A DNA stretch of 64,000 bases from Candidatus Marinacidobacterales bacterium (GCA_965219415.1 CBDCNP010000002.1:4128001-4192000); one strand, 5' to 3'; numbered from the stretch's first letter, positions 369 to 60,295 are shown. Notes: generated by a model from the sequence alone, not told the origin. A program made the numbers and translations.

Positions 369-449
369 TGTGCTCCGCAAAAAGTCGATCCGGCGTTGAT
401 TGCGCGGTTTTAGACCTGCCGCAATCGGCTGCTTCGTACCGGTCGACCC
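369..449 (+). repeat. end D (left end of an rve/IS481-like element)
   Basis: tgtgctccgcaaaaagtcgatccggcgttgattg recurs at 25344, 25561, 27423 and ~30000. Confidence 0.75.
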
Positions 450-1650
450 CGTCCTGGTGCCAAAACTCAGCCCTTTTGAAATAGGCCATAAATCAGCAGC
501 TTAGTGTCTGTGTTTGCGCCGGGGCCAAGGGCCGTAGGCTTTACAATCGTCTGGCCCGAGGGTGTTATCTTCAGCTCCATGATGACGTACCACGTGCAAT
601 TCCTACTGCTCGTTCTAGCTGGCTGGGTCAACCGCCAGCAGCAGGATGTGATCGACTACCAGCAAGAGGAGAACCGTGTGCTCCGAGCCGGGCTTCGGGG
701 CAAGCGTCTCAGTCTCTCGGACGACGACCGGCGCAGGCTCGCGGTCAAGGCCCAGGCTTTGGGCCGCGAGGCGTTGGCCCAGATTGCGTCCGTTGCCACA
801 CCCGCTACGCTTGTGCGCTGGTACCGCCACCTCATCGCAGCCAGGTACGATGGCAGCAAGAACCGGAGCCCAGGCCGACCTCCGACGGCGAAGGACATCC
901 GTGAGCTCATTGTGCGCGTGGCGCAGGAGAACCCGACGTGGGGATATACGCGCCTGCGGGGTGCACTCAAGAACCTCGGACATGAACTCGGACGCAACAC
1001 CATCAAGAGGCTCCTCGCCGAGCACGGTATCGCGCCGGCTCCGGAGCGGGGCAAGAGCATGTCGTGGAGCACTTTCCTCAAGGCTCATTGGGGCGCTATC
1101 GCTGCGACAGACCTGTTCACCGTCGAGGTTGTGAACCCGTTCGGGCTCGTCCGCTACCATGTCCTGTTTGTCATCGATATCGCCACTCGCTGCGTGTGCA
1201 TCGGTGGGATGACCTCGGACCCAAACGGGGAGTGGATGAAGCAGGCGGCAAGAAACCTCACTGACCTGTGGGATGGTTTCCTCCTTGGCAAGCGGTACCT
1301 CATCCACGACCGGGAACCCGCTATTCACCGAGGCGGTACGTGGGCTCTTGAGAGATTCAGGTGTGAAGCCCCTCCGCCTTCCAGCGAACAGTCCGAATCT
1401 GAACGCATACGCGGAAAGATTCGTTCTCTCCATACGTCGAGAGTGTCTCGACCGCTTCGTACCTCTCAGTGAGCGACACCTGCGGACAGCGGTAACCGAA
1501 TACGTAGTGCACTATCACACAGAACGGAACCACCAAGGTCTCGGCAACGAGCTCCTCACACCTCTGCCGGCAAGCGCGAATGACACTGGCCCCATCGTGT
1601 CGCGAGAGCGACTTGGGGGCATTCTCAACTACTACTACCGTGCCGCGTAG
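450..1650 (+). mobile_element. element A: integrase-core (rve, IS481/IS3-like) transposase, frameshifted
   Basis: End A at 450; ORFs 504..1472 and 1273..1650 with [39 protein letters not shown]; right end not defined. Confidence 0.85.
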
Positions 1651-1777
1651 ATTGTCGCCGGCGACGGTAGCCCCTTGGTGGGCCCGCTCGGCGTAGCGTG
1701 AAAACAGCTTCAGGCACACGCTTCGATATTCGCTCTCGACTAGGTGGTTATCTGCATGGTGACGACCCGCCCGCCCA

Positions 1778-1879
1778 AGACGATTGTAAAGCCCACGGCC
1801 CTTGGCCCGGTCGCAAACACAGACACTAAGTTGCTGATTTATGGCCTATTTCAAAAGGGCCGAGTTTTGGCACAGGACG
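1778..1879 (-). repeat. end A copy
   Basis: Reverse complement of ~450-552, ending ttttggcacaggacg. Confidence 0.85.
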
Positions 1880-2037
1880 GGACGGTAGGACCGGTCCGGA
1901 TCATCCGAAGCCTCGACCGCGGCCTGGATCTCAAAGCGATCGAGGCGGTGAGACAGTGGAAGTTCAAGCCGGGCCTGTTTCAGAGCAAGCCGGTGGACGT
2001 CCTTGCCGTGATCACCGTCGACTTTACGCTGCTGTAA
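1880..2037 (+). pseudogene. TonB C-terminal domain fragment
   Basis: VRIIRSLDRGLDLKAIEAVRQWKFKPG...VDFTL; begins immediately after end A. Confidence 0.75.
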
Positions 2038-2044
2038 TAGGGTA

Positions 2045-2076
2045 CCCTCACCCTACCCTCTCCCAGAGGGAGAGGG
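2045..2076. repeat. REP-like hairpin between convergent genes
   Basis: ccctcacccta-ccctctccc-aga-gggagaggg. Confidence 0.6.
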
Positions 2077-2172
2077 ATAAAGGATGGAAGCCAACATCAA
2101 TTACCATCGTGCTGAGCAGCGGCGCCCGGACGAGTCTCACCGGCGCCGTCTGCTCCAGCACGATTTCCTTAG

Positions 2173-3738
2173 CTATTTGTAGCGCACACCCCCCTTTACC
2201 ACGACGAACACGCGCTTCATCGCGCTCATGTCGAGGAGCGGATTTCCAGCGACCACGATGACGTCGGCCAGTTTTCCGACCTCGAGCGTACCCAGCTGAT
2301 CGGTTAGTCCAAGAGCTTCTGCTCCGATGCGCGTGGAGGCTTCGATCATCCGCATGGGGCTCATACCCAGCTCGACCATGTACTGCATCTCATTAGCGTT
2401 CGGATCTTCTTGCTGAAAGTTCAGGTAGGCGGGGGTGTCGGTTCCCATCGAGAACTTCGCTCCCGCGCGGATGAAGCGGCGCATGTTCTCGCGCGAGGTC
2501 GATCGCCGCTTTATCATCTCGTTGTAGGACGGTCCGCGGAGACCAAACGCATCGTCGCCCGACTCATCGGACGGTCGAGCGCGACGCTCGTAGGTAGGAA
2601 GGCCGGACTGATCCGGGTGCCGCTGGTTGTAGACGAGCTTGTCCCGGTAGCGCATCAGGGTGCGGTACTCCTTGGGCTCCATCGACATGATGTAGAGCGT
2701 CTCGTCCCAGCGATGTGGATCCTCGGCCCGGTTCGCGCCCGCCACCATGACCTCGAGAAGGGTGTCGACGATGACTCCTTTCTTGACGTAGGCATCGATG
2801 ATGTCCTCTTCGATGAGCTCACTTCCATAAAAAGGGTGCTCGAGAGTATCGATATCGAACGCCGTCATGCGCCTCAAGCCCTCGTTGTGCCCACCGCAAT
2901 GGACGTCGATGATCTTCCCGTTCTTGTGCGCCTTGTCGATGATGAAGCGGAGCTGCTCGTCGGTGAAGTCGTTCTTGCCGTCATAGACCTCGCCGGACAT
3001 ATAAAGCTTCCAATAGTTGAAGTCCGGACCGAGGAACTTGTCGGTATCTTCTTCGAGGTCGTCGATGACGTTATAGGCGAACTCGTTGCGCATCCAATCG
3101 ATGGCATCGGCCGGCGTCTTGGCGATCTTGGTGTAATGTGCGAAGTGCTCCGGACTCGTGAACAAAGCTCCGCCGAGGAAGATTCGAGGTCCGGCCATCT
3201 CACCACGGTCGATGGCTTGCTTGATGGGCAGCAACCTTTTCCAGGGTCCGCTGGTTTGTCTTTGGCTGGTGATGCCTTGCATGAGGTAGACCCAGGCTCG
3301 AAACGGCATCCGCGCGAACGTTTCCTCCCACCTTGCCCGGATCTCGTCCATGGGGAGATCGGCAGTGGGGGCCGGATAAATAGGGTTCAATTGAATGTGC
3401 TGATTAGAATTGATGAGTCCCGGCATGATGGTCATGCCGGAGGCATCGATGACCTCGGCGCCTTCCGGAATCTGAACATCTTTCATGGGGCCCACCCACT
3501 TGATGTGCTCCCCTCCGATGACGATCGCATAGTCTTGCTTGGGCGGCGCGCCGGTGGCATCGATGAAAGTCCCTCCCTGAATGACAATGGACCGCTCCGG
3601 ACGAAACGGTGGCTCTTGCGGACCGAAGAAGACGGGGGTCTGCTGGGCACTGAGAATCATCGGCAGCAATAGACAACTCGCTATGAGCCAAAGCAGAGGC
3701 AACAAAGCGGTGATCGAATAAGAAGTTTTCTCCATCAT
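2173..3738 (-). CDS. secreted amidohydrolase family protein
   Basis: Signal peptide; IDASGMTIMPGLI, MGTD, GTLEVGKLADVIVV motifs. Confidence 0.85.
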   Translation of the reverse strand: MMEKTSYSITALLPLLWLIASCLLLPMILSAQQTPVFFGPQEPPFRPERSIVIQGGTFIDATGAPPKQDYAIVIGGEHIKWVGPMKDVQIPEGAEVIDASGMTIMPGLINSNQHIQLNPIYPAPTADLPMDEIRARWEETFARMPFRAWVYLMQGITSQRQTSGPWKRLLPIKQAIDRGEMAGPRIFLGGALFTSPEHFAHYTKIAKTPADAIDWMRNEFAYNVIDDLEEDTDKFLGPDFNYWKLYMSGEVYDGKNDFTDEQLRFIIDKAHKNGKIIDVHCGGHNEGLRRMTAFDIDTLEHPFYGSELIEEDIIDAYVKKGVIVDTLLEVMVAGANRAEDPHRWDETLYIMSMEPKEYRTLMRYRDKLVYNQRHPDQSGLPTYERRARPSDESGDDAFGLRGPSYNEMIKRRSTSRENMRRFIRAGAKFSMGTDTPAYLNFQQEDPNANEMQYMVELGMSPMRMIEASTRIGAEALGLTDQLGTLEVGKLADVIVVAGNPLLDMSAMKRVFVVVKGGVRYK

Positions 3739-4210
3739 CCTCCTCCTCGCGACATAGACAAACCGCCATGGACTATCTCAAAACTTGGCGGCTCGGGCAA
3801 CTCGAGAATTCGTGTGGTTGGATCCACATCCAACCGGTTGGATTAAAACCCCCCAATTGTATACCGAGGTTTCCGCCAGATGATGCGAAGCCGTTTGAAC
3901 GCAGCAGCTTATCCCGAGCCGGACTTCCGGGTTCTGCTGGCATTAGAATTGCTCTATGTCACGCGTGCGGGGTATGGGTGCCACGCAACCTCGGACAACC
4001 CGCCCCGCGAGCGACGCTTCTAGGGGCATTGAGCCGAGCCGAGAAACTGACAAGCCCCCAACTTTTTTGACTCCTAGGCCCATTCTGGGTCACAAAGGTC
4101 GCGGGAGTAAGTGTACACCGTGTACCATCCGTCATATCTAGTCACAAACGCAAGGTATTAGGAGGGTATGAGCCTTGATTAGTATTGCCCCGAACACAAG
4201 GAGGAAGATC

Positions 4211-7147
4211 ATGAGAGCTTTGTGGGTCTCTTCTCTAATGTTAGCTCTATTTTTGACACTTTTGGCGGTTCCCGCGTCGACGCAGGTCGGAGACACCGGT
4301 CTGACAGGAACCGTTTCCGACGGGACGGGGGCTGTCTTACCCGGAGTGACCGTCACCGCAACCCTCACCGCAATGAATATCGTTCGCACCGCGGTAACCG
4401 GTGCCGACGGGAGATACACCCTTAACCAGATTCCTGTGGGTACCTACGAGATCGTCTTCGAGCTCGACGGGTTCGATACCGCCAGGTTGGAGGGCCTAGA
4501 GCTGAACGTCGGTCAGAGACCTACGATCAACGTCACGATGCAGGTGGCTGGAGTCGCGGAGACGATTACCGTGCAAGCCGAGTCGCCGATCATCGAGACG
4601 ACTCGCTCCGAGCTTTCACACACGATCGAAGACATCCAGGTCGAGGAGCTCCCGCTCCTCGGCAGGAATTGGCTGGATCTCGCCGTTTTGGCGGCGGGCG
4701 TGAAATCCGATGGCGGCTCGGCCGACGACGCTCCCACGGCGGGCATCGGCGTCGGCCGCCAGGATAAGGTCCTCATCGATGGATCGGACGTCAACAACCG
4801 CTCCACCCACCGGACGGTCGACATCAAGCTTTCCAGAGAGTCCATCGCCGAGTTCGAGATCAAGACCAACCAGTTCGACGCCCAGCTCGGTCAAAGCGGT
4901 ACCTCGGTGACCCAGGCGGTCACCAAGTCGGGAACCGACACCTTCCATGGAAGCGGTTTTTACTACCGACGCGACGGTGACTGGGCAGCTGCGGACTTCT
5001 TCACCGGCACAAAGAACTCAGACTTCTCCAATACGCAGGTTGGTGGAACGATCGGTGGTCCCGTCATGCAGGGTAAAGCCTTCTTCTTCTTCAGCTACGA
5101 GTGGCAAAACACGCCGCAGACCTGTTCATCCAATATAGGAATCGCCGCCATCGACTCCCAACAAGTCGATTGCAGCGATAAGCGGAATCTCTGGTTCATC
5201 CGAGGCGACGCCACGATCAACCAGAACCATCGAACCGCGATTCGATACAATCGAACCACTCGCATACAACCACACGCACGCGTCGGCGGGAGCACGCCAC
5301 CGGGGGGGGGGGGCAATAACGACTTCTGGTTCAACCGCTTCAACTGGTCCTTGAACTCGGTCTTCGGAGACAGCGTGGTGAACCGGTTCATCTTCAACTA
5401 CCTCGACGCGAACCGCTTGTTCGGCAAGGTGGGTGAAGAAATTATCGGACCCTCGATCAGCCCGAGGTTGACGTCCGCCGGCCCGAGCTTCCAGTTTCCT
5501 AGCGCCATCCTGGGTGGCTCACGAGGCGGGGGCTTCGAGAACCCCGACTATTGGTCCATCCGCGATGATATCTCCACCTTCTTCGAGAAGGGCGGGGACC
5601 ACAACTTGAAGCTCGGCGGCTACCTAGAGCGGGCGCAGCTTCAGGGGTTCTTCCTCTTCCAGACCAACGGGGTCTTCTTCTTCGACCAGGACCCGGCGAA
5701 TATCCAGACCTGCTGCATCTCGGAAGACTTCCGGGAGTGGGACACGTCCCAGTTTCCCCCCGCCCTCCGGTACTCCCAAAACCTGGGTGTACCCGAGATC
5801 CTGACCCCTCAGAACGTCTACTCGGCCTATGTCCAGGACGATTGGTCAGTCAACGAAAAGCTCACGCTGAACCTGGGTTTGCGCTGGGACTTAGAGACCG
5901 GCTCTCTCTTCAATAATGAGGAGAACCTCACACGCCAAGAGCAGTTCGGTAACGACTTAAACAACTTCCAGCCGCGGCTGGGTTTCGCCTACGATATCAA
6001 GGGTGACGCCAAGACCATCATTCGGGGAGGCGCAGGACAGTTCTACTCCCAAGCCTTCTTGAACATTGCCCTGTTCGTCCAGCGCTCGAATAGAACTCAA
6101 GAGATCAACGTCACCGTCACTAACGATGACCTGGATCCCGGTTTCAACCAGGATCCGCTGGGCGGGCGCGGCTTCGACGACTTCAGTAATCTGATTGGTA
6201 CGGTTCCTTTCGACGTTTCCATTTTCGACCCGAGCGCGGTGATCCCGAGCCTCTGGACGTTCACCGGTGGCGTGGCACACCAGATTACGCCATCGATGGC
6301 TGTCGAAGTCGACTATATCTACCAGAGGACCGACAATCAGTACCGCTCGCGGGATACCAACCTCTTCTTCGACAGCGCCAATAACCGCCCCTTCCCGGTC
6401 AACGATGGATTCTTCCCCGAGCTCGGCGGTCAAGTGGTCGGCAGGGGACGGCCCGAATCGGCCTTCGCGGTAATCCGAAGTTTCGTGAACGAGGGCAGGG
6501 CCCGTTACAACGCCCTTTCGGTGGCTCTCCAGAAGAAATTCCAAAACAACTACTCCTTCGGCCTGACCTACCTGCTTTCCAAAAACGAAGACAGCTACAA
6601 CGACGTCTTCGACTACCCTAGCAACATGTTCGATCTCGAAGACGAATTCGGCACTTCGCAGCTCAGTCAGACACACCGCTTGACGGCGAACTGGGTGTGG
6701 GTCATGCCGCACGACTTCGTCTTCAGTGGACTACTCTACACGGCGTCGGGATTAGCGCGGCGGACGGTGGCCAATGGACAGGACCTCTTCGGCATCGCTC
6801 CCGAGCAGCGCGGCCTGAGCCCGCGGCCGATCTGCGGTCTCGACCCGCAATTCAACGCAGCCTGCGCCGCCCTCGGAATCGCCGATGGGACACGCATACC
6901 CCGCAATGCCTTCCAGACCGACAGCGTCTTCCGTCTCGACGTCCGCGTCGGGTGGCGTGGTTACGTCTCAGAGGAAATCTTCATCGAGCCGACCCTCGAG
7001 GTCTTCAACTTGTTCAACCGGCAGAACAACGACCCCCGGCGCTTCAACACGAACCTGGCGAGTGGCGGCTTTGGCGCACCCGGTCGCTCGACCAACCTGC
7101 CCTACCTGCCACGCACGCTTCAACTGGGTGTGCTCCTGCGTTTCTAG
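4211..7147 (+). CDS. TonB-dependent receptor (Oar-like, carboxypeptidase-regulatory N-domain)
   Basis: GTVSDGTGAVLPGVTVTA, LPLLGRN, YVQDDW, FQPRLGFAYD, C-terminal F; RBS before ATG 4211. Confidence 0.9.
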   Translation: MRALWVSSLMLALFLTLLAVPASTQVGDTGLTGTVSDGTGAVLPGVTVTATLTAMNIVRTAVTGADGRYTLNQIPVGTYEIVFELDGFDTARLEGLELNVGQRPTINVTMQVAGVAETITVQAESPIIETTRSELSHTIEDIQVEELPLLGRNWLDLAVLAAGVKSDGGSADDAPTAGIGVGRQDKVLIDGSDVNNRSTHRTVDIKLSRESIAEFEIKTNQFDAQLGQSGTSVTQAVTKSGTDTFHGSGFYYRRDGDWAAADFFTGTKNSDFSNTQVGGTIGGPVMQGKAFFFFSYEWQNTPQTCSSNIGIAAIDSQQVDCSDKRNLWFIRGDATINQNHRTAIRYNRTTRIQPHARVGGSTPPGGGGNNDFWFNRFNWSLNSVFGDSVVNRFIFNYLDANRLFGKVGEEIIGPSISPRLTSAGPSFQFPSAILGGSRGGGFENPDYWSIRDDISTFFEKGGDHNLKLGGYLERAQLQGFFLFQTNGVFFFDQDPANIQTCCISEDFREWDTSQFPPALRYSQNLGVPEILTPQNVYSAYVQDDWSVNEKLTLNLGLRWDLETGSLFNNEENLTRQEQFGNDLNNFQPRLGFAYDIKGDAKTIIRGGAGQFYSQAFLNIALFVQRSNRTQEINVTVTNDDLDPGFNQDPLGGRGFDDFSNLIGTVPFDVSIFDPSAVIPSLWTFTGGVAHQITPSMAVEVDYIYQRTDNQYRSRDTNLFFDSANNRPFPVNDGFFPELGGQVVGRGRPESAFAVIRSFVNEGRARYNALSVALQKKFQNNYSFGLTYLLSKNEDSYNDVFDYPSNMFDLEDEFGTSQLSQTHRLTANWVWVMPHDFVFSGLLYTASGLARRTVANGQDLFGIAPEQRGLSPRPICGLDPQFNAACAALGIADGTRIPRNAFQTDSVFRLDVRVGWRGYVSEEIFIEPTLEVFNLFNRQNNDPRRFNTNLASGGFGAPGRSTNLPYLPRTLQLGVLLRF

Positions 7148-8998: not shown

Positions 8999-9088
8999 AG
9001 CCTACGACCTTTGGTCCGGTCGCAAACACAGGCACTGAGCTGCTGATTTGTGGTCTACTTCAAAAGGGCCGAGTTTTGGCACAGGACG
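8999..9088 (-). repeat. end A copy
   Basis: Ends caaaagggccgagttttggcacaggacg. Confidence 0.8.
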
Positions 9089-9106
9089 GGTGTCTCTTAG
9101 GTAGCG

Positions 9107-9341: not shown

Positions 9342-10156
9342 ACTGACGCACCCATAAAACCCTGGCAATAGCGGGGGCCCGCTGGTGGATGCAAGCGGCC
9401 GGTTGATGGGCATCAATACCCTCATCTATTCCCAGTCCGGAGGGAGCGAGGGGTTGGGCTTCGCCGCTCCGAGCAACATCGTTCGCAACATCTACGAACA
9501 GATCCGGAAGTCGGGTCGAGTACGGAGAGGCGAGATCGGAGTGCTGGCCCAAACGATCACCCCCAATCTAGCTCGGGGTTTGAATCTACCGCGTGAGTGG
9601 GGAGTGATCCTGGGAGACGTCTACCCCGGTGGACCGGGCGCCGATGCCGGGCTCGAAATAGGGAGACGTCGTCCTAACTCTCGATGGCAAGGCGAGGGAG
9701 AACGGTCGCCAGTTCCAGGTCAACCTCTATCGACGGACCGTCGGAGAAAGGGTCACCCTTCGCGTGCAACGCGGCTCGGACATTACCAACTTCGAGGTCA
9801 GAGTCGTGGAGCGTCCCGACGATCCGGACCGATTCCGTGACATGGTTCACCCCGATCGAAACCTGGTCGACGAGCTTGGAATACTCGGAGTCGACTACGA
9901 ACGGGCGCTCGCCTCGAAGCTTCCTCGCCTGCGAAAGCGTTCGGGCGTCGTCGTAGCGGCCCGGTCCGTCGAGACGGTGTCCTTTCGGGACGGCGGCCTT
10001 TTGCCCGGCGACGTAATCCAAGCGGTAAACCGCCCATCGATTGCTACGCTGTCCGAGTTGCGGGCGACCCTCGCGAGGCTCCGTCCCGGCGATCCCCTCG
10101 TGCTTCAGACAGACCGACAAGGGCGCATCTTGTTCGTCGGCATGGTGGTGGAGTGA
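9342..10156 (+). pseudogene. HtrA/DegP protease C-terminal fragment (catalytic Ser + PDZ), frameshifted
   Basis: TDAPI(N)PGNSGGPL, GSEGLGFA, PDZ GLLPGDVI, spread over several frames. Confidence 0.8.
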
Positions 10157-10158
10157 TA

Positions 10159-13970: not shown

Positions 13971-13993
13971 AAGATCCCCTTGCTCGGCTACGG

Positions 13994-49226: not shown

Positions 49227-49404
49227 GGTGCTTCCTCCATTAAGTGTTGGTTAGATGACGCTAAGACTTTACGGTGCATTAAATTACAGCCAACATAGCG
49301 CTCACAACCTTCGCCGCGCGCTAAATGGAACGTAAGCGCCTTTTTTGCAAAGAGATGCGTACACATCACCAACAGCAAACAGCGCAAGCACTGGCGGAAG
49401 CACC
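49227..49404. mobile_element. IS1-derived MITE C1 plus an extra C-end remnant
   Basis: Inverted copy of 21333-21498. Confidence 0.8.
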
Positions 49405-49469
49405 ACCGGGAACACCGTTTGGAGCCACCTACCACCAACGCCCGCTCGTCCCTTCCCGTGCATGTCTGC

Positions 49470-49860: not shown

Positions 49861-49877
49861 TGCCTTGGTGCACAACT

Positions 49878-50121
49878 GGTGCTTCCGCCATCAAGTGTTG
49901 CTACGCCGTGTTTGAATGCTAGTGTCAGCTGGCCTGCCTGTGTCGGCGAACGCCATTGATAAGGATGTCGGCGTGCACACGAAGGCGTCCCTGAACGTCA
50001 GGCACCGTATGGTCAGCCCAGCCCGCATCGCCGAAAGAACTGCGTCTCTCGAAATCAGGCTCAAACTCTAGCACACGAGCGGGTTACGCGGCAGCCACCA
50101 ACACTTAATTGCGGAAGCACC
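49878..50121. mobile_element. IS1-derived MITE C2
   Basis: Copy of 41580-41820. Confidence 0.85.
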
Positions 50122-50214
50122 CAGTGGTCTGGGAAAGCCCCGGGCCGCTGCTCCACCCCTACCCGGGGGCGTCCACTGGGACAACCCCGGAAGGGGACGA
50201 ATACAATGCTTCCG

Positions 50215-50874
50215 CTACTTCGGTTGGGGAACGATCCGGATGTAGGGTAGCGGCGACTGCCAACCGGCAGGATACTTCTTCTTGGCCTCGTCGTCGGACA
50301 CGGCTGGAACAATGATCACGTCGTTGCCCTGTTTCCAATTGACCGGTGTTGCCACCTTGTGGGTCGCTGTGAGTTGGCAGGAGTCTAGGAGGCGGAGGAT
50401 CTCATCGAAGTTGCGGCCCGTGCTCATCGGGTAAGTCAAGGTCGCCTTGATCTTCTTATCGGGGCCGATGATAAACACGGACCGGGCCGTCGCGTTGTCC
50501 GCCGCCGTCCTTCCGGTGGAGGTGTCGCCCTCGTCCGCCGGCAGCATGTCGTAGAGCTTGACGACCTTCAGTTCTGGATCCCCGATCAGCGGATAGTTGA
50601 TCGCGTGTCCCTGGGATGCCTCGATTTCCTTCGACCACCTCTTGTGGTCGCTGACTCCATCGACGCTGATGCCGAGAACCTTGCAGTTGCGCTTTTCGAA
50701 CTCAGGCTTGAGCCCCGCCATATAGCCGAGTTCCGTCGTGCAGACCGGCGTGAAGTCCTTTGGATGCGAGAACAAGATGGCCCAACCTTCGCCAATCCAA
50801 TCATGAAAGTTGACCGTCCCTTCTGTCGTTTCTGCGTTAAAGTTCGGCGCTTCGTCATTGATTCTGAGCGTCAT
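50215..50874 (-). CDS. 1-Cys peroxiredoxin (Prx6 type)
   Basis: FSHPKDFTPVCTTELG, YPMSTGRNFDEILR, ATPVNW. Confidence 0.93.
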   Translation of the reverse strand: MTLRINDEAPNFNAETTEGTVNFHDWIGEGWAILFSHPKDFTPVCTTELGYMAGLKPEFEKRNCKVLGISVDGVSDHKRWSKEIEASQGHAINYPLIGDPELKVVKLYDMLPADEGDTSTGRTAADNATARSVFIIGPDKKIKATLTYPMSTGRNFDEILRLLDSCQLTATHKVATPVNWKQGNDVIIVPAVSDDEAKKKYPAGWQSPLPYIRIVPQPK

Positions 50875-51170
50875 AATTCCCTCCAGAGCATGTGAACGAC
50901 CCGTTAACCGGTTTGAATGTGAAAAATCTAAGGCGATGACCGTTGTTGAAATACTCGATTCAACTCGGCTCCCAAGACAGCCTCCTCCTGAAGACTCGAC
51001 AGACCTGGGTAGCCCGGAACTGCCAAGAGAGAGTTCGTCCCCAAGGTGCTTAGTCTCAGATCCCAAACGCTATGAAGTACGGTTGCACGCTTAAATGCTA
51101 CTCAGTTTCAACGGGTCGGACAAGTGCAATCGCGCGTCGGGTGCAGAAGGAGCACACTTTCTTAATTATT

Positions 51171-52247
51171 GGGATGTGTCCCGAGGTCCGTGGAAAAAGA
51201 ACGGCACCCTCCACTCCGTCATCAGAGTATCATATCAGGCGGCAACCTCCGCGTGTTCGAGAACCTCGCTCAGACGTTGGTAGCCGTCGATGCGTCGTCG
51301 TCCTGTGCCAAAACTCGGCCCTTTTGAAATAGGCCATAAATCAGCAGCTTAGTGTCTGTGTTTGCGACCGGGCCAAGGGCCGTGGGCTTTACAATCGTCT
51401 GGCCCGAGGGTGCTATCTTCAGATCCAGTACCATCCATTGACCACCAGCAGGGCCACCGGCAACCACCGCCGCACGCCGCTAGCGACCGCACTTCCTGGA
51501 TTAGCTGCCGGAAGAGAGAGCAAGCCGGTTTCCCGCATCGCCGAGCCATTCATCCAGTTTCGACCACCGCCGCCGTCCCGAGACATTGCGCACGGCGATG
51601 GCCACAGCCTTCTTCTGGCCGACCAACCCATTCGACGGCTTTCTGCGCGGCAAGCGATTCCTCATCCTGGAACCGCGACAAGAAGTTCACCACGGAGTTT
51701 CGCGATTTGCTCGAGCACGCCGGAACGGACGTCATTCGGCTGCCGCACCGTTCGCCGAATCTGAACGCTTATGTCGAAAGGTTTGTTTTGTCGATCAAGA
51801 GCGAGTGCTTGGATGCATCATGAACGGGCCACCCGGCCCCGGAGTGATTCCGGCAATGTGCACTTTTCGCGAAGACAGCTCGATGACGACGAGCACATAG
51901 TAGGTCACGAGCCTGCGAACTGTGGCGACCTCGACGGTGAAGAAGTCGGTCGCAGCAACGGTTTCCCAATGGGCGGCGAGAAACGTGCGCCATGGCGTTC
52001 GCTCACTTCGCTCCGGCGCGGGCTCGATGCCATGTTCTCGCAGAACATTGGCGATGGTGCTCCTGGCTACCGTATGGCCGAGATTCGAGAGGGCGCCGCG
52101 AATGCGTGTATACCCCCACCTCGGATTCGACTTCGCCATCCCTACGACAAGCTTGCTAATCTCGGCCATGACCCGGGGCCGTCCGGGCTGTTTCCGCCGC
52201 TCGCTGTAGTCCCACTTCCGCGCAATCAGCCTTCGGTGCCAAGCCAG
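51171..52247. mobile_element. IS256 end, end A (51299) and scrambled A-related transposase fragments on both strands
   Basis: [12 protein letters not shown] (+); [17 protein letters not shown] (-). Confidence 0.75.
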
Positions 52248-53505
52248 TGAAGTGACCCCGCTTTCGTGGACAGGTTAAGAGTTAGGGATCAAGCGTCGCG
52301 ATAGTACCTCCTTTCGAATTGGATAGGCGAGCAATAGTCGATGGCGGAGTGTCGTCGTCGCGGGTTGTACCAGCCTTCGATGAAATCGAAGGTCGCCATG
52401 CGCGCCTCAGCGTGGTAGCGAAACGACCGGCGCTCGATCAGCTCGCACTCGAGCGTCGCGAAGAAGCTCTCGCACATCGCATTGTCGTAACAGTCCCCGA
52501 CCGAACCCATCGACGGTCGCACCCCGGCCTCCCGGCATCGCTGGCCGAACGCTAGTGACGTGTACTGCGTGCCCTGGTCCGAGTGATGGATGACGTCGCC
52601 GGGCTTGCGTTGGAACAGCGCCATGTCGAGGGCGCTCAAGACGAGCGACGTCCGCAGGTGGGTAGCCATTGCCCATCCGACGATGCGTCGGCTGAAGGCG
52701 TCCAGCACGACGGCGAGGAACAAGAAGCCCGACCACGTGGGCACGTAGGTGATATCGGCGACCCACAGGCGGTCGGGCCGGTCCACCTCGAAATTCCTGT
52801 CGACGAGATCGGGGGCGGGACGGGCGTCGTCACAGCGAATCGTAGTGTGCGCCCTCTTGCGCCGGTGAACACCTTGAATGCCAGCCTCGCGCATCAGCCG
52901 CGCTACACGCTTGCGTGAGACGTGGAGCTCGTGTGTCTCTCGTAGCTCGTGGAGAATCCTCGGCGCGCCGTACGTGCTCCGCGACGCGGTGTGAATCGCC
53001 CGGATCTTCTCAAGCAACTCCGCATCCGACACCGCGCGGGCCGACGGGGCACGCTCAAGCCACGCATAGTAGCCGCTGGCGGAGACGTCCAGCAGTCGGC
53101 ACATCGTGGCAACCGGTAGTGAATCCTGGTTCGCCCTCACGAATCGGAAGGCTTCGGTGGTACCGACTCGGTCTCCCGAGCGAACCAGGCCGCGGCTTTT
53201 GAGAGGATCTCCCGCTCCAACCGTAGTTGACGGTTCTCCCGTCGCAGGCGGCGGAGCTCCGCACGCTCCTCACTCGTCAGACCGTCCTGCCTGCGACCCT
53301 CGTCGAGATCCGCCTGGTTCACCCAGTTCCGGATCGTCTGGCCCGAGGGCTCAAACTCTCGCGCCAGCTCTTCAGAGCCGCGGCCAGCTCGCACCAGCTC
53401 TACCATTTGGCGCCGGAACTCGGCCGCGTATCTGTTTCCCTGCTTTGACATCGTGGACTCCTGTCTCCCAAAGGATTAGGTGTCCACGAAAGCGGGTCAA
53501 GTCCA
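52248..53505 (-). mobile_element. IS3-family element, complete
   Basis: TG..CA TIRs; orfA 53137..53451, orfB 52289..53140 (WVADITY, HSDQG, DNAMCESFF); no TSD. Confidence 0.9.
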
Positions 53506-53723: not shown

Positions 53724-54020
53724 TCACACCGACGGATGCGGCTGGTATCGCTCGACGTTGATCCGATCTTCGTCCTTGCGCGCTTGGACGAGATCCCAAG
53801 TGGTCTGTCGGCGCAGCCAGAACTCGGCATTGGACCAGCCCGCCTTCTCAAGCCGAATGGCCATCTCCGGGGAGATGGCCGCGTGGCCGTTCAGAACCCG
53901 CGAGAGGGTGTGACGGGCGACACCCAGCACCTTCGCCGCTTCGGTCACGTTCAAACCGAGCGGGTCCAGGCAGTTCTTGCGGATGCTGCGTCCGGGATGC
54001 GGGGGATTGCTCATCGCCAT
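53724..54020 (-). CDS. higA: HigA family antitoxin
   Basis: [30 protein letters not shown]. Confidence 0.9.
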
Positions 54021-54034
54021 GTTGCTGCCTCCTG

Positions 54035-54313
54035 CTAGTGGTAGTCGATCAGGTCGACATCGTAGGCATCGCCATCTTCGAAGCGGAAGATCACCCGCCA
54101 GTTGCCGGAAATCGAGATGCTCCAGTACCCCTTCAGTCCGCCCTTCAGCGGGTGAAGCCGGTAGCCGGGCAGGTCGAGGTCCGAGGGCTTGCGGGCATCG
54201 TCAAGGTCCGTCAAGGCGAGCGCGACGCGGTCCGCGAGGTCGGGACCCACTCGGCTCGGATCGCCACGCTCGTACATGCGCTTCAGACCACGATGACGAA
54301 ACCTTCGGATCAT
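54035..54313 (-). CDS. higB: HigB/RelE-type toxin (plasmid maintenance killer)
   Basis: [33 protein letters not shown]. Confidence 0.9.
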
Positions 54314-54358
54314 GAGGGAGTGTACCGCATACCGGTACACATTTCAATTGGGGAATCC

Positions 54359-54536
54359 CGTCCTGTGCCAAAACTCGGCCCTTTTGAAATAGCCCATAAA
54401 TCAGCAACTTAGAGTCTGTGTTTGCGGCCGTGCCCAGGGCCGAGCGCGAACAAACGACGAAATCATGCAGGCATAGTCCCGGCAGATCGGAGACCGATCA
54501 GGTTCGGGGCGCGCGGATGAATAAATAGAAGGCACA
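54359..54536. repeat. chimeric linker A + B
   Basis: Copy of 38390-38567. Confidence 0.88.
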
Positions 54537-55678
54537 GGCCAGCGCTATTCGCGCTTGCCGGCAGAGGAGTGAGGAGCTCGTTGCCGAGACCTTGGTGGTT
54601 CCGTTCTGTGTGATAGTGCACTACGTATTCGGTTACCGCTGTGCGCAGGTGTCGCTCACTGAGAGGTACGAAGCGGTCGAGACACTCTCGACGTATGGAG
54701 AGAACGAATCTTTCCGCGTATGCGTTCAGATTCGGACTGTTCGCTGGAAGGCGGAGGGGCTTCACACCTGAATCTCTCAAGAGCCCACGTACCGCCTCGG
54801 TGAATAGCGGGTTCCCGGTCGTGGATGAGGTACCGCTTGCCAAGGAGGAAACCATCCCACAGGTCAGTGAGGTTTCTTGCCGCCTGCTTCATCCACTCCC
54901 CGTTTGGGTCCGAGGTCATCCCACCGATGCATACGCAGCGAGTGGCGATATCGATGACAAACAGGACATGGTAGCGGACGAGCCCGAACGGGTTCACCAC
55001 CTCGACGGTGAACAGGTCTGTCGCAGCGATGGCGCCCCAATGAGCCTTGAGGAAAGTGCTCCACGACATGCTCTTGCCCCGCTCCGGAGCCGGCGCGATA
55101 CCGTGCTCGGCGAGGAGCCTCTTGAATGGTGTTGCGTCCGAGTTCATGTCCGAGGTTCTTGAGTGCACCCCGCAGGCGCGTATATCCCCACGTCGGGTTC
55201 TCCTGCGCCACGCGCACAATGAGCTCACGGATGTCCTTCGCCGTCGGAGGTCGGCCTGGGCTCCGGTTCTTGCTGCCATCGTACTTGGCTGCGATGAGGC
55301 AGCGGTACCAGCGCAGGAGCGTAGCGGGTGTGGCAACCGACGCAATCTGGGCCAGCGCCTCGCGGCCTAAAGCTTGGGCCTTGACCGCGAGCCTGCGCCG
55401 GTCGTCGTCCGAGAGACTGAGACGCTTGCCCCGAAGCTCGGCTCGGAGCACACGGTTCTCCTCTTGCAGGTAGTCGATCACATCCTGCTGCTGGCGGTTG
55501 ACCCAGCCAGCCAGAACGAGCAGCAGGAATTGCACGTGGTAGGTCATCATGGGTCTGAAGATAACACCCTCGGGCCAGACGATTGTAAAGCCCACGGCCC
55601 TTGGCCCGGTCGCAAACACAGACACTAAGCTGCTGATTTATGGCCTATTTCAAAAGGGCTGAGTTTTGGCACAGGACG
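54537..55678 (-). mobile_element. element A second copy, 3'-truncated and frameshifted
   Basis: Near-identical to 450-1590; end A at 55678. Confidence 0.88.
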
Positions 55679-55848: not shown

Positions 55849-56400
55849 CTACGACGTAGTCTTCGCCGCCGGCGCGTGCTGCGCCATGCGCTCCTGCATC
55901 TGTCGGGTGAGATGCGGCACCAGACCGATCATGCGCTGAAGCAGCATGAGTTGACCGCGGTGGTGCATCTCGTGCTCCTTTGGTGACAGGAGCATCTCGA
56001 AACGCGTCTTGGTCGCAGGCTCCGCGCCGGGGGGCATCGCGACGGGTTCCGCAAGAAACTCATCCGACAGGCCCTCGAGGAACGACGCGAAAGCCTCTCC
56101 CTGTGATTTGAGGTAGGTGATCGTTTCTGCTTTGGTCCGCGGCTTGGCCTCTTCCGCGCTGAACTTCTGGAACAGCTCCATGAAGTTCACGTCCTTGAGG
56201 TCGGTGACCTTGTTGCGCTGGATATAGTCCTGAAACCCGGTGCTCACCGCGATGTGGGCCAGGGTGGCACCGATGCTGCGCGTGTCGGGACTCGCCTGGA
56301 ATCCGTACTTGTCCCCAGGAATGTCCTCGGCGGTCTGAATGGTGTTGCCGCGAACCTGGCGAAAGCTTCGTGCCAGGTCCTTGCCTCCGTAGTGCGTCAT
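55849..56400 (-). CDS. DinB family protein
   Basis: RSIG.TLAHI, EHEMHHRGQL....R.IG.VP. Confidence 0.88.
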   Translation of the reverse strand: MTHYGGKDLARSFRQVRGNTIQTAEDIPGDKYGFQASPDTRSIGATLAHIAVSTGFQDYIQRNKVTDLKDVNFMELFQKFSAEEAKPRTKAETITYLKSQGEAFASFLEGLSDEFLAEPVAMPPGAEPATKTRFEMLLSPKEHEMHHRGQLMLLQRMIGLVPHLTRQMQERMAQHAPAAKTTS

Positions 56401-56682
56401 TGCGATGTTTCCTCCGATTTCGATATCAGGATCTACTCAAGCTGGCTCGACAGCAGTCGCTGTCGGGTCAGCTCGATGTGCTGCTCCTCGTCGTGGCTGG
56501 CGACAATCACCAGCTCGGGCTCGGTGCGTGACAGCTCGTTCAACCGGGATTTCCATTTTGGCCGTCCTGGTCGGTACCGTTATACACCAAGCGACCTTCC
56601 GCGTGGGCCGGGTGTGTTCGTGGCCGTTTGGTCAAAATACTCGAACGCCAGCGGGTCAGCAGTTTGCATCTTTCCAAAGGCC

Positions 56683-56829
56683 TGTGCCTTCTATTTATTC
56701 ATCCGCCAGCCCATGGGTCGGAAGTCAGCCCTGCGGCGCGAAATACCCTAGATTCTGCGCGGATTCCAAGGGCGTCTAAGCTGCTGATTTGTGGTCTATT
56801 TCTAAAGGGCCGAGTTTTGGCACAGGACG
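56683..56829. repeat. chimeric linker B' + A
   Basis: Inverted copy of 42774-42921; followed by an IS3 scrap (PEHIRSDNGPEF) and a partial F end. Confidence 0.88.
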
Positions 56830-57046
56830 GGGTCCCGGAACATATTCGCTCCGATAACGGCCCGGAGTTTACGGCCGCGGCTGTCCAAGAACACAAACGA
56901 ACTCAAGCCCCGCGCGCCGGGATGTTTCGGATTAGAGTGGTCTAGGCTTGGTTTGGCAATGGAAGCTAGAATCCTCGGTCATGAGGACGCCGATCCAGCC
57001 CTGGACCCTTGCGCGCCTCGCGTCCTGACAGTACTCGCGAAACGTC

Positions 57047-58075
57047 TCACCTGTCGAACATACCGCCGATCCCGCCAAGCCCACCCAGCACGGAGCCCTC
57101 TCCCCTGCCGCCCGTGCCCGTCTGAGGAGCGGCTTCGTGAATGCGCCCCGCAAGTCGGCTGAACGGAAGTGACTGCAACCACACGGTGCCCGGCCCCGTC
57201 AGGCTGGCGAAGAAAAAGCCTTCACCGCCGAAGATGGCGGATTTGATGCCTCCGACAAATTCAATTTCATAACTTACGGTCGGCTCAAGGGCCACGAGAC
57301 ACCCGGTGTCGACCCTTAGGTTCTCTCCCGCCCCCAGCTGCTTTTCAGCGATCGTGCCGCCAGCATGGAGAAAGGCGAGGCCGTCACCTTCAAGGCTCTG
57401 CATGATGAAGCCTTCACCCCCGAAAAGCGCGACACCGATCTTCTTCTGGAAGGCGATGCTGATCGCAACGCCCTTCGCCGCGCACAAGAAGGCGTTCTTC
57501 TGGCAGATGAGGCGTCCTCCCATGCGATTGAGATCGGCGGGCAGGATCTTACCCGGATGGGGAGCGGCGAAGGCGACGTGTTGTTTTCCCAAACCATGGT
57601 TCACGAATTCAGTGATGAACAAGCTCTCACCGGTGAGCACTCGCTTGCCTGCGCCAAGGAGCCGATCCATGAGGCCTCCGCCAGAGGACGAGCCGTCGCC
57701 AAAGATAGTGCTCATCTGGATTCCCGACGTCATGTACATCATGGCCCCGGCTTCCGCGACTGCGCCTTCACCCGGGTCGAGTTCGATCTCGACAAACTGC
57801 ATCTCGGAGCCCACAATGTTGTAGTCCACCTCGTGTGCTCGCCGTCCTGACTCCGTAGGCAGCGCGGGTAGAGCTCCGGCTCCATCCCTACCCGAAAAGA
57901 TATCCGAGAGTTCGGTGATCTCGCTCGCCGCGACCCAGCCCGACATGCCTTGTTTGAAAACCAGCGTTTCCTGGTTGTACTCACCGGAGCGAAAGCCGCT
58001 GACGAGCTCGAGCTTCGTCATCGGGCCGATACTTTGGCCTCCGACGGCGACGTGCCACTCCTTCGCCTCTGTCAT
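57047..58075 (-). CDS. TIGR00266/AIM24 family protein with N-terminal GYF_2-like domain
   Basis: W.VA..GQ.IGP...GM.GW; AEAGAMMYM, FGGEGF, GPG.VWLQSLP. Confidence 0.85.
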   Translation of the reverse strand: MTEAKEWHVAVGGQSIGPMTKLELVSGFRSGEYNQETLVFKQGMSGWVAASEITELSDIFSGRDGAGALPALPTESGRRAHEVDYNIVGSEMQFVEIELDPGEGAVAEAGAMMYMTSGIQMSTIFGDGSSSGGGLMDRLLGAGKRVLTGESLFITEFVNHGLGKQHVAFAAPHPGKILPADLNRMGGRLICQKNAFLCAAKGVAISIAFQKKIGVALFGGEGFIMQSLEGDGLAFLHAGGTIAEKQLGAGENLRVDTGCLVALEPTVSYEIEFVGGIKSAIFGGEGFFFASLTGPGTVWLQSLPFSRLAGRIHEAAPQTGTGGRGEGSVLGGLGGIGGMFDR

Positions 58076-58723
58076 GTCATAGCTCCTGTCTTCTTGTACG
58101 TGCGAACGGCGAGTATAGCAGATGGTAGTGACGCGCTTGCCGCGGTGCTTCCACCATCACGTGTTGGCGGCCGCCGCATAACCCCGCTGCAACTAGTGGT
58201 GGTGCTTGCTCCGTTTACTGTTGCCGGCTCGTCCACATCGTCGTGTGAGGACGGCATTTATGCACAGTTTTGCGCAAGCTCAAGTCTGGTGACGTTAAAA
58301 TCTGATGTAACCTATTGCACTACAAAGTTTTCCCCTCATGCCCTCCCTCTTGCCGAGGCCGAAAAGAACGGGCGCTCTCGACCCTGCTGGCGGCGCACCC
58401 TGCGGCTTGAGCTCGTTTGTGTCTTTGGACACGACGGGCTCAGCAGTTCCATTGCGACACCTCCTCGTATTCCTCAAGGGTTCGAGTCTCGACCGTCACA
58501 CGCTCCCACAACCCTTGATGGTGTGCTGGGACGGTACTCCAGCCCTGCGAGACTTCCTTCAGGCGATGGGTCGCGACCTAGATCTACCATGAACGCCTGC
58601 TTCGCGCCGAGCGACCCGACGACGTCACCGGCGTCTTATGAACGTGGAAAGGCTCGCTCTTGGCGACGACCGTGTCCAGCGAGTGACCGTTCCCAAAGAG
58701 GGCATCCACGTTGCAGTACTTGT

Positions 58724-58926
58724 GGTGCTTCCGCCATTAAGTGTTGGTGAGATGACGCTAAGACTTTACGGTGCATTAAATTACAGCCAAAATAGCGTTC
58801 GTGACCTTTGCTTCGCGCTAAATGGAGCGTAAGCGCCTTTTTTGCAAAGGGATGCGTACACATCACCAACAGCAAACAGCGCAAGCACCGGCCTATTTCA
58901 AAAGGGCCGAGTTTTGGCACAGGACG
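58724..58926. mobile_element. MITE C1 (58724-58889) plus end A remnant
   Basis: ggtgctt...aagcacc, then ggcctatttc...caggacg. Confidence 0.85.
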
Positions 58927-59436
58927 GGATCGAGACCAGACCTACGGAGCGTACTTCGATACTCGCGTCGACGGCCTCGGGATAGAGCAGGTCCTTACCG
59001 CACCGCGCTCCCCGTGGCAGAATCCATTTGTCGAAAGGATGATCGGCTCCATTCGACGTGAGTGTCTCGACCACGTGATCGTCCTTGATGAGCAGCACCT
59101 GAGGCGAATCCTACGCGAATACGTCGACTACTATCATTCGTGCCGGACTCATTTGTCGCTTGAGAAGGACGCGCCTGAGCCTCGCCGGGTAGAGTCACCG
59201 GCGATGGGCAAAGTGAGAGCCATTCCAAAGGTCGGTGGTCTCCATCATCATTACACTCGACGCGCTGCTTGAGTCCGATCCGCTCGGAACGGCTGCCGGA
59301 CTTCGCACCAGCTTACACCTCTACCCCTGAGTAGAGCCGACGCCGGCTCTTAAAACGTCCTACATGAAGACGACCAAAGCATTCCGGTTGCAGGAAGTTC
59401 GCCAATCTCATACAGCTCGAGTTTATGGAAGGGACA
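58927..59436 (+). mobile_element. element B 3' half with right end
   Basis: Near-identical to the reverse complement of 27920-28430. Confidence 0.85.
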
Positions 59437-59864
59437 ACCGAGACAACAGCCGGGTCGGCTACAAACTCGACTTCTATCGGGCTGTGTTCGACCGGGCGCA
59501 GCAACTGCGGCGCCGATGTCCAGTGCTCGTGATCGGGGATTTCAACACCGCGCACCGCGAGATCGACCTCGCTCGCCCGAAATCCAATGTCAAGAACAGC
59601 GGGTTCCTCCCCGAGGAGCGGGTCGAGCTCGACCGCTGGCTCGAAGCGGGCTGGGTGGACACCTTTCGCGCCCTGCATCCCGACCAGCCGGACCATTACA
59701 CTTGGTGGCGGCAGTGGAGCGGCGCGCGCGAGCGGAACGTCGGGTGGCGGATCGACTACGTCCTCGCGTCGCCGAGCGCGATGGAACGGTTGAAGGACGC
59801 CTTCATCTGGCCCAACGAGCGGGGCTCCGACCACTGCCCAGTCGGTGTCGACATCGACCTCTAG
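59437..59864 (+). pseudogene. xth: exodeoxyribonuclease III C-terminal half
   Basis: GDFNTAH.EIDLA, GFLPEER, YTWW, NVGWRIDY, SDHCPV. Confidence 0.85.
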
Positions 59865-59886
59865 GAAGGCAGTACGGAGAAGCGCG

Positions 59887-59930
59887 GTAGGGTCGAGGGC
59901 TGGCGCGGTGCTCCGTAGGCGCGGCCTATC
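59887..59930 (-). mobile_element. group II intron 3'-end remnant
   Basis: gtagggtcgagggctggcgcggtgctccgtaggcgcggcctatc, identical to 27315 onward. Confidence 0.6.
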
Positions 59931-59931
59931 T

Positions 59932-60295
59932 CGTTGTGTCCAAAAACACAAACGAACTCAAGATCGGCGCGCCGGGGCCGTTTCGATCGTCATCAACCCG
60001 TGGCGAGCCCCAGATCTGGGGGTCGGAGACGATGTCGGCGATTCGAGTTCCCCGTACGCGCAGGAAACACCGTCCAGCAAGGGGATGCCACGCTCCCGAG
60101 CGGAAACTTGGGTCCAGGCCCGGGCCGCACCTGGACCAGAACGTGCTAGCCCGCTGCGCCGCGGTAGCCCCGGCCTCGATTCTAGGTCCTCTAGAGACGA
60201 GAGCGGGAACCAACGACGAAATCATGCCGGCATGGTGCCGGCAGACCGGAGACTAATCAAGTTCGGTGCGCGCGGATGAATAAATAGAAGGCACA
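59932..60295. repeat. linker: end F plus outward-facing end B
   Basis: cgttgtgtccaaaaac...atagaaggcaca. Confidence 0.7.

Follow-up and report, generated by a model that had tools for sequence, protein, structure and literature searches.

Expansion of insertion sequences (ISs), with IS-mediated deletion, inversion and pseudogenes, is known from host-restricted or recently specialised bacteria such as Shigella, Bordetella pertussis, Burkholderia mallei and Orientia. Also known is mobilisation by flanking miniature inverted-repeat transposable elements (MITEs) or from a single element end, as in integron mobilisation units, ISEcp1-type capture and plant Pack-MITEs, and elements of the IS110/IS1111 group insert into the inverted repeats of other transposons, IS4321/IS5075 in Tn21-type repeats being an example. 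Here, these systems are compared with a stretch of 64,000 nucleotides (the window) from the genome of a Candidatus Marinacidobacterales bacterium (G000, GCA_965219415.1; contig C3, positions 4128001-4192000), in which short blocks of genes and gene fragments lie among repeated IS and MITE ends. An earlier note on this DNA had read it as an array that captures and trims genes by repeated transposase action at orphan IS ends, analogous to an integron. According to our analysis, the window is probably the left edge of a megabase-scale, horizontally exchanged accessory compartment saturated with ISs and MITEs of at least 17 families, the mosaic being a by-product of transposon load and not a capture device.

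The likeness to an integron lies in the run of short unrelated gene units with short repeated joints between them. The joints differ, however, in being transposon ends or breaks from at least 12 families, with 15 block edges at internal breaks. An integron was rejected, as there is no IntI, no single joint type and no bounded array, orientation is mixed, and gene fragments are included. None of the 242 open reading frames (ORFs) of the window matched an integrase or recombinase family, and the only recombination-type families among them are rve, DDE, Mutator and DEDD transposases. The intact genes lie on both strands, and the blocks additionally hold non-functional material, namely gene interiors, a pseudogene and a CRISPR scrap. 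What stands of the earlier note is that the joints are IS and MITE ends, that the mosaic was built there and that some blocks resemble movable units; the dedicated, integron-like array is not supported.

The host-restricted, IS-rich genomes share with this one hundreds of IS copies, genes cut at termini, lost synteny, and copies that lack a target-site duplication (TSD) after recombination. They differ in that at least 17 families occur together here, with many MITEs, heavy nesting and sharp domains (0-37% repeats per 50 kb), and in that elements and mosaic pieces are shared at 98-100% across genera. As in MITE-flanked or one-ended mobilisation units, MITEs without ORFs are present (14-149 full copies) and some genes travel with a MITE or an IS scrap; here, in contrast, there is no TSD, the unit ends belong to different families, and mobilisation is putative. 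The parallel to IS4321/IS5075 is that all 30 copies of an IS110-family element, with the same flanks, lie at one position of the left repeat shared by an IS1-like element (ISb) and its MITE (MITE2); what differs is this target, and its occurrence in Acidobacteriota.

Identity of the Repeated Ends

The "vocabulary" of ends consists of the inverted repeats of at least 12 ordinary IS and MITE families. A repeat library was compiled from the window repeats and their genomic copies, and element limits were taken from the majority flanks of genomic copies and from all-against-all comparison of copies, a k-mer walk rebuilding only IS5 and ISd. The ends are element boundaries because the consensus flanks of the genomic copies change sharply there. 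The assignments made from consensus flanks are:

B end: inverted repeat of about 55 bp of ISa and ISa2 (IS481-like, 1437-1438 bp)
A end: repeat of ISb (IS1-like, 1200 bp), MITE1 (166 bp) and MITE2 (241 bp)
C end: right repeat of ISc (1253 bp, IS481/IS3-like) and one end of MITE3 (150 bp)
D end: MITE-D (97 bp)

The opposite end of MITE1 is the "E" motif, and that of MITE3 is a B end. Other families present are IS256, three IS3 types, IS5, ISd, ISe, ISf and the IS110-family element.

Family assignments were made by Pfam and NCBIfam profile searches of two sets of window ORFs (103 + 139). The transposases of IS3_1 and IS3_2, elements with TG...CA ends, reach 338.6 and 347.5 bits with NF033516 (cut-off 160), and that of the IS110-family element reaches 302.6 bits with NF033542 (cut-off 140). 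The IS256 transposase is frameshifted in the window and matches NF033543 in two frames with 119.6 and 82.8 bits, each piece being below the cut-off. ISa (46.8 bits) and ISc (82.5 bits) do not reach the IS481 cut-off (NF033577, 224), with the IS3 and IS630 models scoring alike, and are therefore named IS481/IS3-like only; similarly, ISb (82.1 bits) remains below the IS1 cut-off (NF033558, 100) and is hence IS1-like by likeness only.

The MITEs are all short and non-coding and have random flanks, with 148-156 full genomic copies of MITE1, 26-30 of MITE-D, 14-26 of MITE2 and about 72 of MITE3. The ends of MITE1 and MITE2 match those of ISb (for MITE1, 22 of the first 23 nt), and those of MITE3 match the right end of ISc and the end of ISa; no parent IS of MITE-D was found. 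MITE3 (window copies 42772-42921 and 56683-56831) has multiplied with random flanks despite having ends from two IS types.

With up to three mismatches allowed, the window holds 16 matches to the B terminus, 21 to A and 11 to C, compared with none in any of 100 dinucleotide shuffles. Listing its repeats gave 60 or more direct families, with 231 inverted pairs, and in blastn searches of its own genome the termini are found in 100-400 copies and the IS bodies in 20-50. The repeated termini and the mosaic pattern are thus confirmed as real and far above chance.

A Compartment of Megabase Scale

The genome of 8.05 Mb is assembled in three contigs (C1, C2, C3) of 59% GC each, and is bigger than those of its congeners G001 and G002 (4.7 and 6.3 Mb). 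Library repeats make up 11.1% of C3, 12.4% of C2 and 2.4% of C1. On C3, 47 of the 114 bins of 50 kb (2.35 Mb) hold at least 10% library repeats, the range being from 0 to 37%, and the window, at 29%, is typical of them. The local array of the earlier note is not borne out by this comparison of joint density with the rest of the replicon: because 2.35 Mb of C3 have an equal repeat texture, the window forms the left edge of a compartment and not a discrete array. C1 and the initial 1.8 Mb of C3 have almost no termini. These are concentrated in bounded domains, where their density reaches 40-97 per 100 kb, and one boundary of the largest domain (C3 4.1-5.69 Mb) is marked by the window. Repeat cover in the dense 2.35 Mb of C3 is 12-37%.

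The B and A ends also recur in other genera of the order, with copies in the hundreds. Among 41 genomes, the B end has 93-506 copies in 10, with any match at all in 11, and the A end occurs in 16; reversed-pattern controls gave no match for either end. Neither end was found in the small-genome family within the 41. Repeats common to G000 and other genomes are 95-100% identical.

The block GC content (0.54-0.66, as compared with 0.548-0.63 in 1-kb steps of C1) shows few outliers, such as the TonB-receptor block at 0.655, and is not decisive as a guide to origin. Scans of the window for tRNAs and Rfam families gave no match. Just left of the window, a 2.6-kb stretch (C3:4124501-4127094) is 75% identical to an element that occurs on C8 of G002 (at least three copies in the part examined) and once at the start of C1 of G000; it may be a further mobile element.

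At the level of titles and abstracts, nothing was found in the literature on the IS load of this lineage. Sponge-symbiont communities are described as enriched in transposases and other gene-transfer systems (PMC4850255), a richness in mobile elements to which the present transposase load is similar. Public runs labelled as sponge or sediment metagenomes contain a small share of the window words only, which is no evidence of habitat.

The Block Mosaic

Library repeats cover 18,706 bases (29%) of the window, and other repeats 1,190 bases. When library repeats and any base with at least 10 genomic copies are masked, and stretches of at least 150 bp are retained, 29 low-copy blocks remain (43,198 bases), in agreement with the earlier count of about 30 unrelated blocks. 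An edge was assigned to an element terminus if an outward-facing terminus lay within 40 nt. By this definition, 36 of the 58 edges lie at a true terminus, as had been claimed for the block limits, 15 at an internal repeat break and 7 at no annotated repeat, these including both window ends. Sixteen library entries, belonging to 12 or more element families, account for the 51 annotated edges. The order of features is as follows, with the strand in brackets where one applies.

368..435 (+): MITE-D scrap, positions 1-67 of 97, the first repeat of the IS-dense domain (repeat library)
448..1884 (+): ISa, complete IS481-like element with inverted repeats of about 55 bp (B ends)
1867..2034 (+): TonB C-terminal fragment starting from the ISa terminus (TonB_C match)
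2173..7147 (both): amidohydrolase (-) and TonB-dependent receptor (+), second, diverged copy of a native locus at the end of C1
7514..8974 (+): IS256-family element with frameshifted transposase, no TSD in this copy
8999..9090 (-): one-ended ISa-type scrap, B end, 92 nt
9358..11580 (both): truncated degP/htrA (+) and intact glnA (-), native synteny remnant of 2 kb
11756..12818: scrap run of IS5 1-409, a C end, an ISf 3' end and half a MITE1
12834..19829 (-): SDR, PrpD-like and TctCBA transporter genes (-), with a frameshifted FAD oxidoreductase (18593-19849, +)
19980..21543: nest of MITE3 hit by IS3_1 (20063-21319) and MITE1 (21333-21498), then a 24-nt B scrap
21696..23570 (-): intact sulfatase (family match)
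23855..24568 (+): A-end scrap, repeated B-ended element (23880-24402) and complete MITE1 (24403-24568)
25343..25656 (+): two complete MITE-D copies around a CRISPR-array scrap (full 37-nt repeat at 25489-25525)
26233..27320 (+): small ORF and CxxCxxCC-domain gene, 99% to G001
27920..29172 (+): ISc, complete IS481/IS3-like element with the C end as its right inverted repeat
30077..34279 (+): PQQ-propeller gene, ISc scrap (31472-31687), unknown ORF and M24 peptidase
34369..34804: six-scrap nest of an IS481-like end, MITE2 1-32, B 35 nt, half a MITE1, repeat R34622 and B' 95 nt
34951..37749 (-): intact TonB-dependent receptor (family match)
37922..38087 (-): complete MITE1
38387..38567 (-): B-end scrap (87 nt) fused to C-end scrap (95 nt), with the same fusion at 54356-54536
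38573..39943 (+): N-terminally truncated sulfatase, cut at the C end of the preceding scrap
40027..41226 (+): ISb, complete IS1-like element whose inverted repeats are A ends
41258..41476 (-): helix-hairpin-helix gene fragment
41461..41820 (+): MITE3 cut at 119 nt by complete MITE2 (41580-41820)
41821..42771 (-): recD2 internal fragment (model 117-440 of 713)
42772..42921 (-): complete MITE3 (B end and C end, 150 bp)
42922..43917 (-): amidohydrolase N-terminal fragment
43973..45664 (+): MITE2 with the IS110-family element (43993-45446) in its left inverted repeat
45695..46491: half a MITE1, 35-nt B scrap, 377-bp unique stretch, C-end scrap and ISe internal scrap
46510..47319 (-): intact SDR (family match)
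47411..47668 (-): ISa2 internal scrap and IS256 left-end scrap (157 nt, inverted, 47512-47668)
47755..49167 (-): intact ammonium transporter (amtB), marine subtype (family match)
49227..50121 (+): MITE1, ISd 1-391 scrap and complete MITE2
50127..51170 (-): prx (1-Cys peroxiredoxin) block, 1044 bp (family match)
51171..51427 (+): ISd 1-131 cut by a B end (129 nt)
52248..53505 (+): IS3_2, complete IS3-family element
53727..54343 (-): higB-like toxin and helix-turn-helix antitoxin, intact, a lone island between IS scraps
54356..55678 (-): B/C fused scrap, then ISa minus its last approximately 290 bp (inverted copy of 448-1591)
55852..56436 (-): DinB-family gene (family match)
56624..57009: ISf end scrap, complete MITE3 (56683-56831) and IS481-like "G" end scrap
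57047..58075 (-): AIM24/GYF-domain gene, with 70-73% homologues in three family genomes
58724..59436: MITE1, 40-nt B scrap and ISc left end (513 nt), its terminus facing xth
59437..60295 (+): xth 3' half, downstream scraps and a C end
60296..63412: anti-sigma-like kinase and HAMP sensor block

Most of the genes that were said to stop at a terminus do so. The TonB_C fragment (model positions 24-79 of 79) adjoins the ISa end at 1884; the sulfatase cut at 38567 lacks model positions 1-34 and has the C end beside it; the helix-hairpin-helix gene cut at 41461 is a fragment by its HHH family match; recD2 is cut at both ends; the amidohydrolase is cut at 42921; and the xth cut at 59436 retains positions 132-225 of the 225 of Exo_endo_phos, starting from 59437. 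A second xth, placed at 45796, was not recovered, since the ORF found there (45814-46107) has no family match and tblastx shows no link to the intact xth. Full-length or near-full-length family matches were obtained for the genes described as intact, namely amtB, prx, higBA, DinB, two TonB-dependent receptors, the PQQ propeller and the SDRs. Their tight trimming holds as well, the ones measured lying 13-190 bp from the nearest repeat.

Nesting, Target Duplications and Decay

An 8-bp TSD flanks 19 of 24 full copies of IS256, and TSDs are found in 15 of 19 copies of IS3_1 and 28 of 36 of IS3_2 (3-4 bp); the window copy of IS256 lacks the TSD that most copies have. Nesting is also evident: the window copy of IS110 lies inside a MITE2, and IS3_1 sits inside a MITE3 with the TSD TCCA, so that taking it out restores the MITE3 sequence.

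The proportion of whole copies differs strongly between families. Genome-wide, 24 of 43 pieces of IS256, 36 of 53 of IS3_2 and 29 of 35 of IS110 are whole, and ISa and ISa2 together have 10 full copies, 278 one-ended ones and 85 internal pieces. This shows that young families are mostly whole, whereas old ones survive mainly as one-ended scraps. The orphan IS ends of the earlier note are therefore real, but they are what one would expect to remain of old elements after disruption by later insertion or deletion, together with complete, two-ended MITEs (100-250 bp). Such shortening can be followed at single loci: ISa beside the TonB-receptor block measures 1033 bp in G002 and 87 nt in the window, and ISd beside prx measures 397-405 nt at three other loci and 131 nt in the window. 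Insertion is still ongoing, since the PQQ-propeller gene of G002 is interrupted by an unclassified IS of 1438 bp (G002:C18:134488-135925) with a 9-bp TSD, and the corresponding site of the window is empty.

Origin of the Blocks

The blocks were compared with the congeners G001 and G002 and with G003, a member of another genus. The 20-kb searches of G002 scored 40 candidates each, for which reason a block missing there carries no weight, and 10 blocks were re-searched singly; these single-block searches left out 24574-25339, 25657-25991, 38573-39881, 45810-46186, 53636-54351 and 55688-56620. Core orthologues of G000 and the two congeners are 83-89% identical.

Part of the window is native. The glnA-degP block is 86-89% identical to G001 and G002, and the two genes are adjacent in both of these and in G003; the relatives of glnA among named records are uncultured Acidobacteriota. 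The neighbours of glnA in G001 map to 2.90 Mb and 5.05 Mb of G000, and the 5.05-Mb block is near glnA in G002 too. Judging from this gene order, the pair is what is left, over 2 kb, of native synteny, in a backbone that has been broken up. Block 1885-7203 (the TonB fragment, amidohydrolase and receptor) is a second copy of a three-gene native locus at G000:C1:2059899-2065312, to which it is unevenly similar, with 88% identity for the amidohydrolase and 70% for the receptor, and it is the C1 copy that is collinear with G001.

Many other blocks are far closer to other species. The Tct block and the TonB-receptor mosaic 34518-38473 (3956 bp, eight repeat pieces) are 98% identical to G002, the latter also recurring elsewhere in G000; the PQQ gene is 99% identical to G002, 31039-34278 and 26233-27320 are 99% identical to G001, and 60296-63412 is 99% identical to G002, with parts on contig C2 and at C3 5.65 Mb. 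The PQQ-to-M24 block is duplicated at C3 0.763 Mb. The FAD oxidoreductase, a pseudogene split over three frames, has its 3' part duplicated at C3 3.455 Mb, and a 317-bp piece of it is 100% identical in G003. The amidohydrolase fragment has a 99.6% nucleotide copy at C3 3.049 Mb (amino acids 1-333, 99.4%), and of amtB only a 108-bp remnant, 100% identical, is found in G002. For the sulfatase block 21561-23850 there is no match in G001-G003, and for the SDR block 46492-47410 none in seven family genomes. The block order is scrambled relative to G001 and G002, and the window is not a series of blocks all syntenic with a relative, the outcome that the earlier note had named as pointing to simple IS decay in place.

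Copies of cut genes in another context, which that note had proposed to look for, do exist, as already seen for degP beside glnA in three relatives. G003 has a near-full recD2 of about 2.3 kb, in two overlapping frames, which is 99.4% identical to the window piece and runs on beyond the retained 957 bp in both directions. An intact xth island is located at C3 2.377 Mb; the 3' half in the window is a cut version of it. The CRISPR scrap at 25440-25525 (13 nt of repeat, one 36-nt spacer and one full 37-nt repeat, between the MITE-D copies) has its main arrays about 600 kb away (G000:C3:4746472-4757171), with 81+23+10 = 114 repeats interrupted twice, and a two-repeat scrap on C2.

From these comparisons, trimming in place would be favoured over the capture of ready-trimmed cassettes, because longer forms of recD2 (G003), ISa (G002) and ISd, and an intact xth (2.377 Mb), exist elsewhere, and because a CRISPR-array scrap and a three-frame FAD oxidoreductase are present and insertion is ongoing in the PQQ copy of G002. 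The duplicated and shared segments end at element termini, which are real breakpoints.

Proposed Course of Events

In the process proposed here, the starting material is the inverted repeats of ISa/ISa2, ISc, ISb, IS3, IS5, IS256, ISd, ISe and ISf and of the MITEs that stem from some of these, which are the repeated ends. Elements insert into one another, as seen for IS110, whose copies all lie in the ISb-type repeat, and for IS3_1 in MITE3; young families are still mainly whole, and old ones persist chiefly as one-ended scraps. Both native DNA (glnA-degP) and DNA shared at 98-100% with other species or genera are present, in blocks of approximately 1 kb. Deletions and duplications, one of whose breakpoints lies at an element terminus, would then remove unselected DNA, probably through intramolecular or aberrant transposition and through recombination between hundreds of copies, and the outcome would be intact single genes close to IS tips together with unselected scraps. 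A common IS/MITE pool may let mosaic pieces pass between co-occurring relatives.

Alternative Explanations

Several observations weigh against this course of events. One concerns prx, which recurs as a unit of MITE1, 1044 bp and ISd 1-397 (L128:3969-5605, L129:4324-5960, L130:4089-5633). Two loci of G003 are 100% identical over its 1637 bp and have unrelated DNA outside, and a copy at 4.47 Mb of G000 is 98.3% identical (the prx block alone, 99%), with different surroundings each time. Its edges, on the left exactly at the MITE1 terminus and on the right at the junction of ISd with an IS481-like terminus, are too sharp for random decay. Among the 149 full copies of MITE1, seven pairs share a flank starting at the terminus, and in five of them it extends for at least 478 bp at 99% identity or more, on one side only; this one-sided sharing could mean active mobilisation led by IS ends rather than passive decay. 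ISb (31 copies), MITE1, MITE2 and MITE-D have no TSD, as a search with k=2-10 and offsets of +/-8 gave only conserved internal bases, and no more than 7 of 148 MITE1 copies have a flank repeat (k=2), roughly the number expected by chance. The contamination score of G000 is 8.45%. No VirB4 or type IV coupling protein family, which could account for exchange between genera, was found in G000, G001, G002 or G008. Finally, the four public runs were compared as assembled contigs (Logan) and not as reads; they speak to single junctions, and the long-range order of the blocks is outside their reach.

The alternative that survives best is that IS and MITE ends mobilise genes as units, with a transposase acting on one end and a surrogate or foreign second end, in a manner akin to one-ended transposition or Pack-MITE transduction, which would make the region partly an active shuttle. 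This is unlikely, in our estimation, as an account of the locus. It agrees with the identical edges of the prx unit in three contexts and two genera, with the one-sided MITE1 flanks, with the 36 edges at true termini, and with an xth island (ISc scrap, xth and C end) that is 98-99% identical among G000, G002 and G003. As to one-ended capture of the ISEcp1 or IS91/ISCR type, fixed left edges at MITE1 termini and one-sided shared flanks were observed, and the units contain no transposase; no IS91/HUH family was matched among the window ORFs in Pfam or NCBIfam. However, the outer flanks of the examined units carry no TSD, and the two ends of a unit are neither of one family nor mutual inverted repeats. 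On its right, the prx unit is bounded, at different loci, by the terminus of different IS481-like elements, and the ISd stretch there resembles that terminus, a situation that independent insertion at a preferred site can explain. Moreover, many blocks are scraps without selectable function, and no movement has been observed. That the MITE1-prx-ISd and ISc-xth-C end segments are true mobile units, moved by a transposase on one end together with a foreign or look-alike end, is likewise doubtful.

A composite transposon was also considered and rejected. The recD2 fragment lies between inverted MITE3 copies that are 99% complementary, the left copy of which is truncated, with outer flanks that are not direct repeats and no outer TSD; the ends of the prx unit are of different families.

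By-product rearrangement of a transposon-laden chromosome, the reading that we prefer, has also to be set against the integration of plasmids or conjugative elements, by which foreign replicon DNA would have entered through IS-mediated cointegration and then decayed. Contig C2 (284 kb) has the same repeats and a 2.2-kb block that is 99.6% identical to the window, many blocks are 98-100% identical to other species against 83-89% for core genes, and the recD2-type helicase gives weak, sub-threshold matches to conjugative relaxase/helicase models. Against this explanation stand the lack of VirB4 and type IV coupling proteins in the four genomes searched and the native syntenic segments (glnA-degP; 5.047-5.067 Mb) inside the dense domain, which make it distinctly improbable.

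As regards the assembly, contigs from two of the public runs (X15 and X16, from two studies) match unique blocks with no or few differences and run 25-37 nt into the same flanking termini, as at 38543-39918, 46462-47443 and 56973-58000, with three junctions having at least 31 letters on both sides. An artefact in which a long-read metagenome assembler joined unrelated molecules through shared IS copies, as the three contigs, the contamination score, the size relative to congeners, the repeats shared at 95-100% with other genomes and the breakage of public-run contigs at every repeat might suggest, is highly improbable in view of these contigs, of the multi-junction mosaics that recur in other assemblies (the TonB-receptor mosaic in G002, the prx unit in G003 and the xth island in both) and of the interleaving of native and foreign blocks on one contig.

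In the same runs, the summed contig depth (X15, X16 and X2) over 42003-42669 (recD2) and 48006-48672 (amtB) is 10-60 times that of neighbouring unique bins and is not readable as copy number. It may be that more abundant genomes in these samples carry the two sequences as well.

Significance

As a new example of a known process, the locus brings in undescribed element families, and it is unusual in its sharp compartments and in the mosaic pieces shared across genera. It can serve as a source of such families, both IS and MITE, one of them an IS110 element that targets the repeat of another element. It also carries a warning, as such regions should not be read as gene arrays and short-read bins of these taxa should not be trusted. 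No new capture mechanism emerges from it; what it documents is a chromosome split into IS-free and IS/MITE-saturated compartments in uncultured Acidobacteriota, which offers a natural test bed for whether MITE and IS ends can shuttle host genes. If they do, the IS-dense compartments would be a shared reservoir of genes open to exchange, a bacterial analogue of Pack-MITE transduction, and units such as those of prx and xth would circulate within and between genera of these Acidobacteriota.

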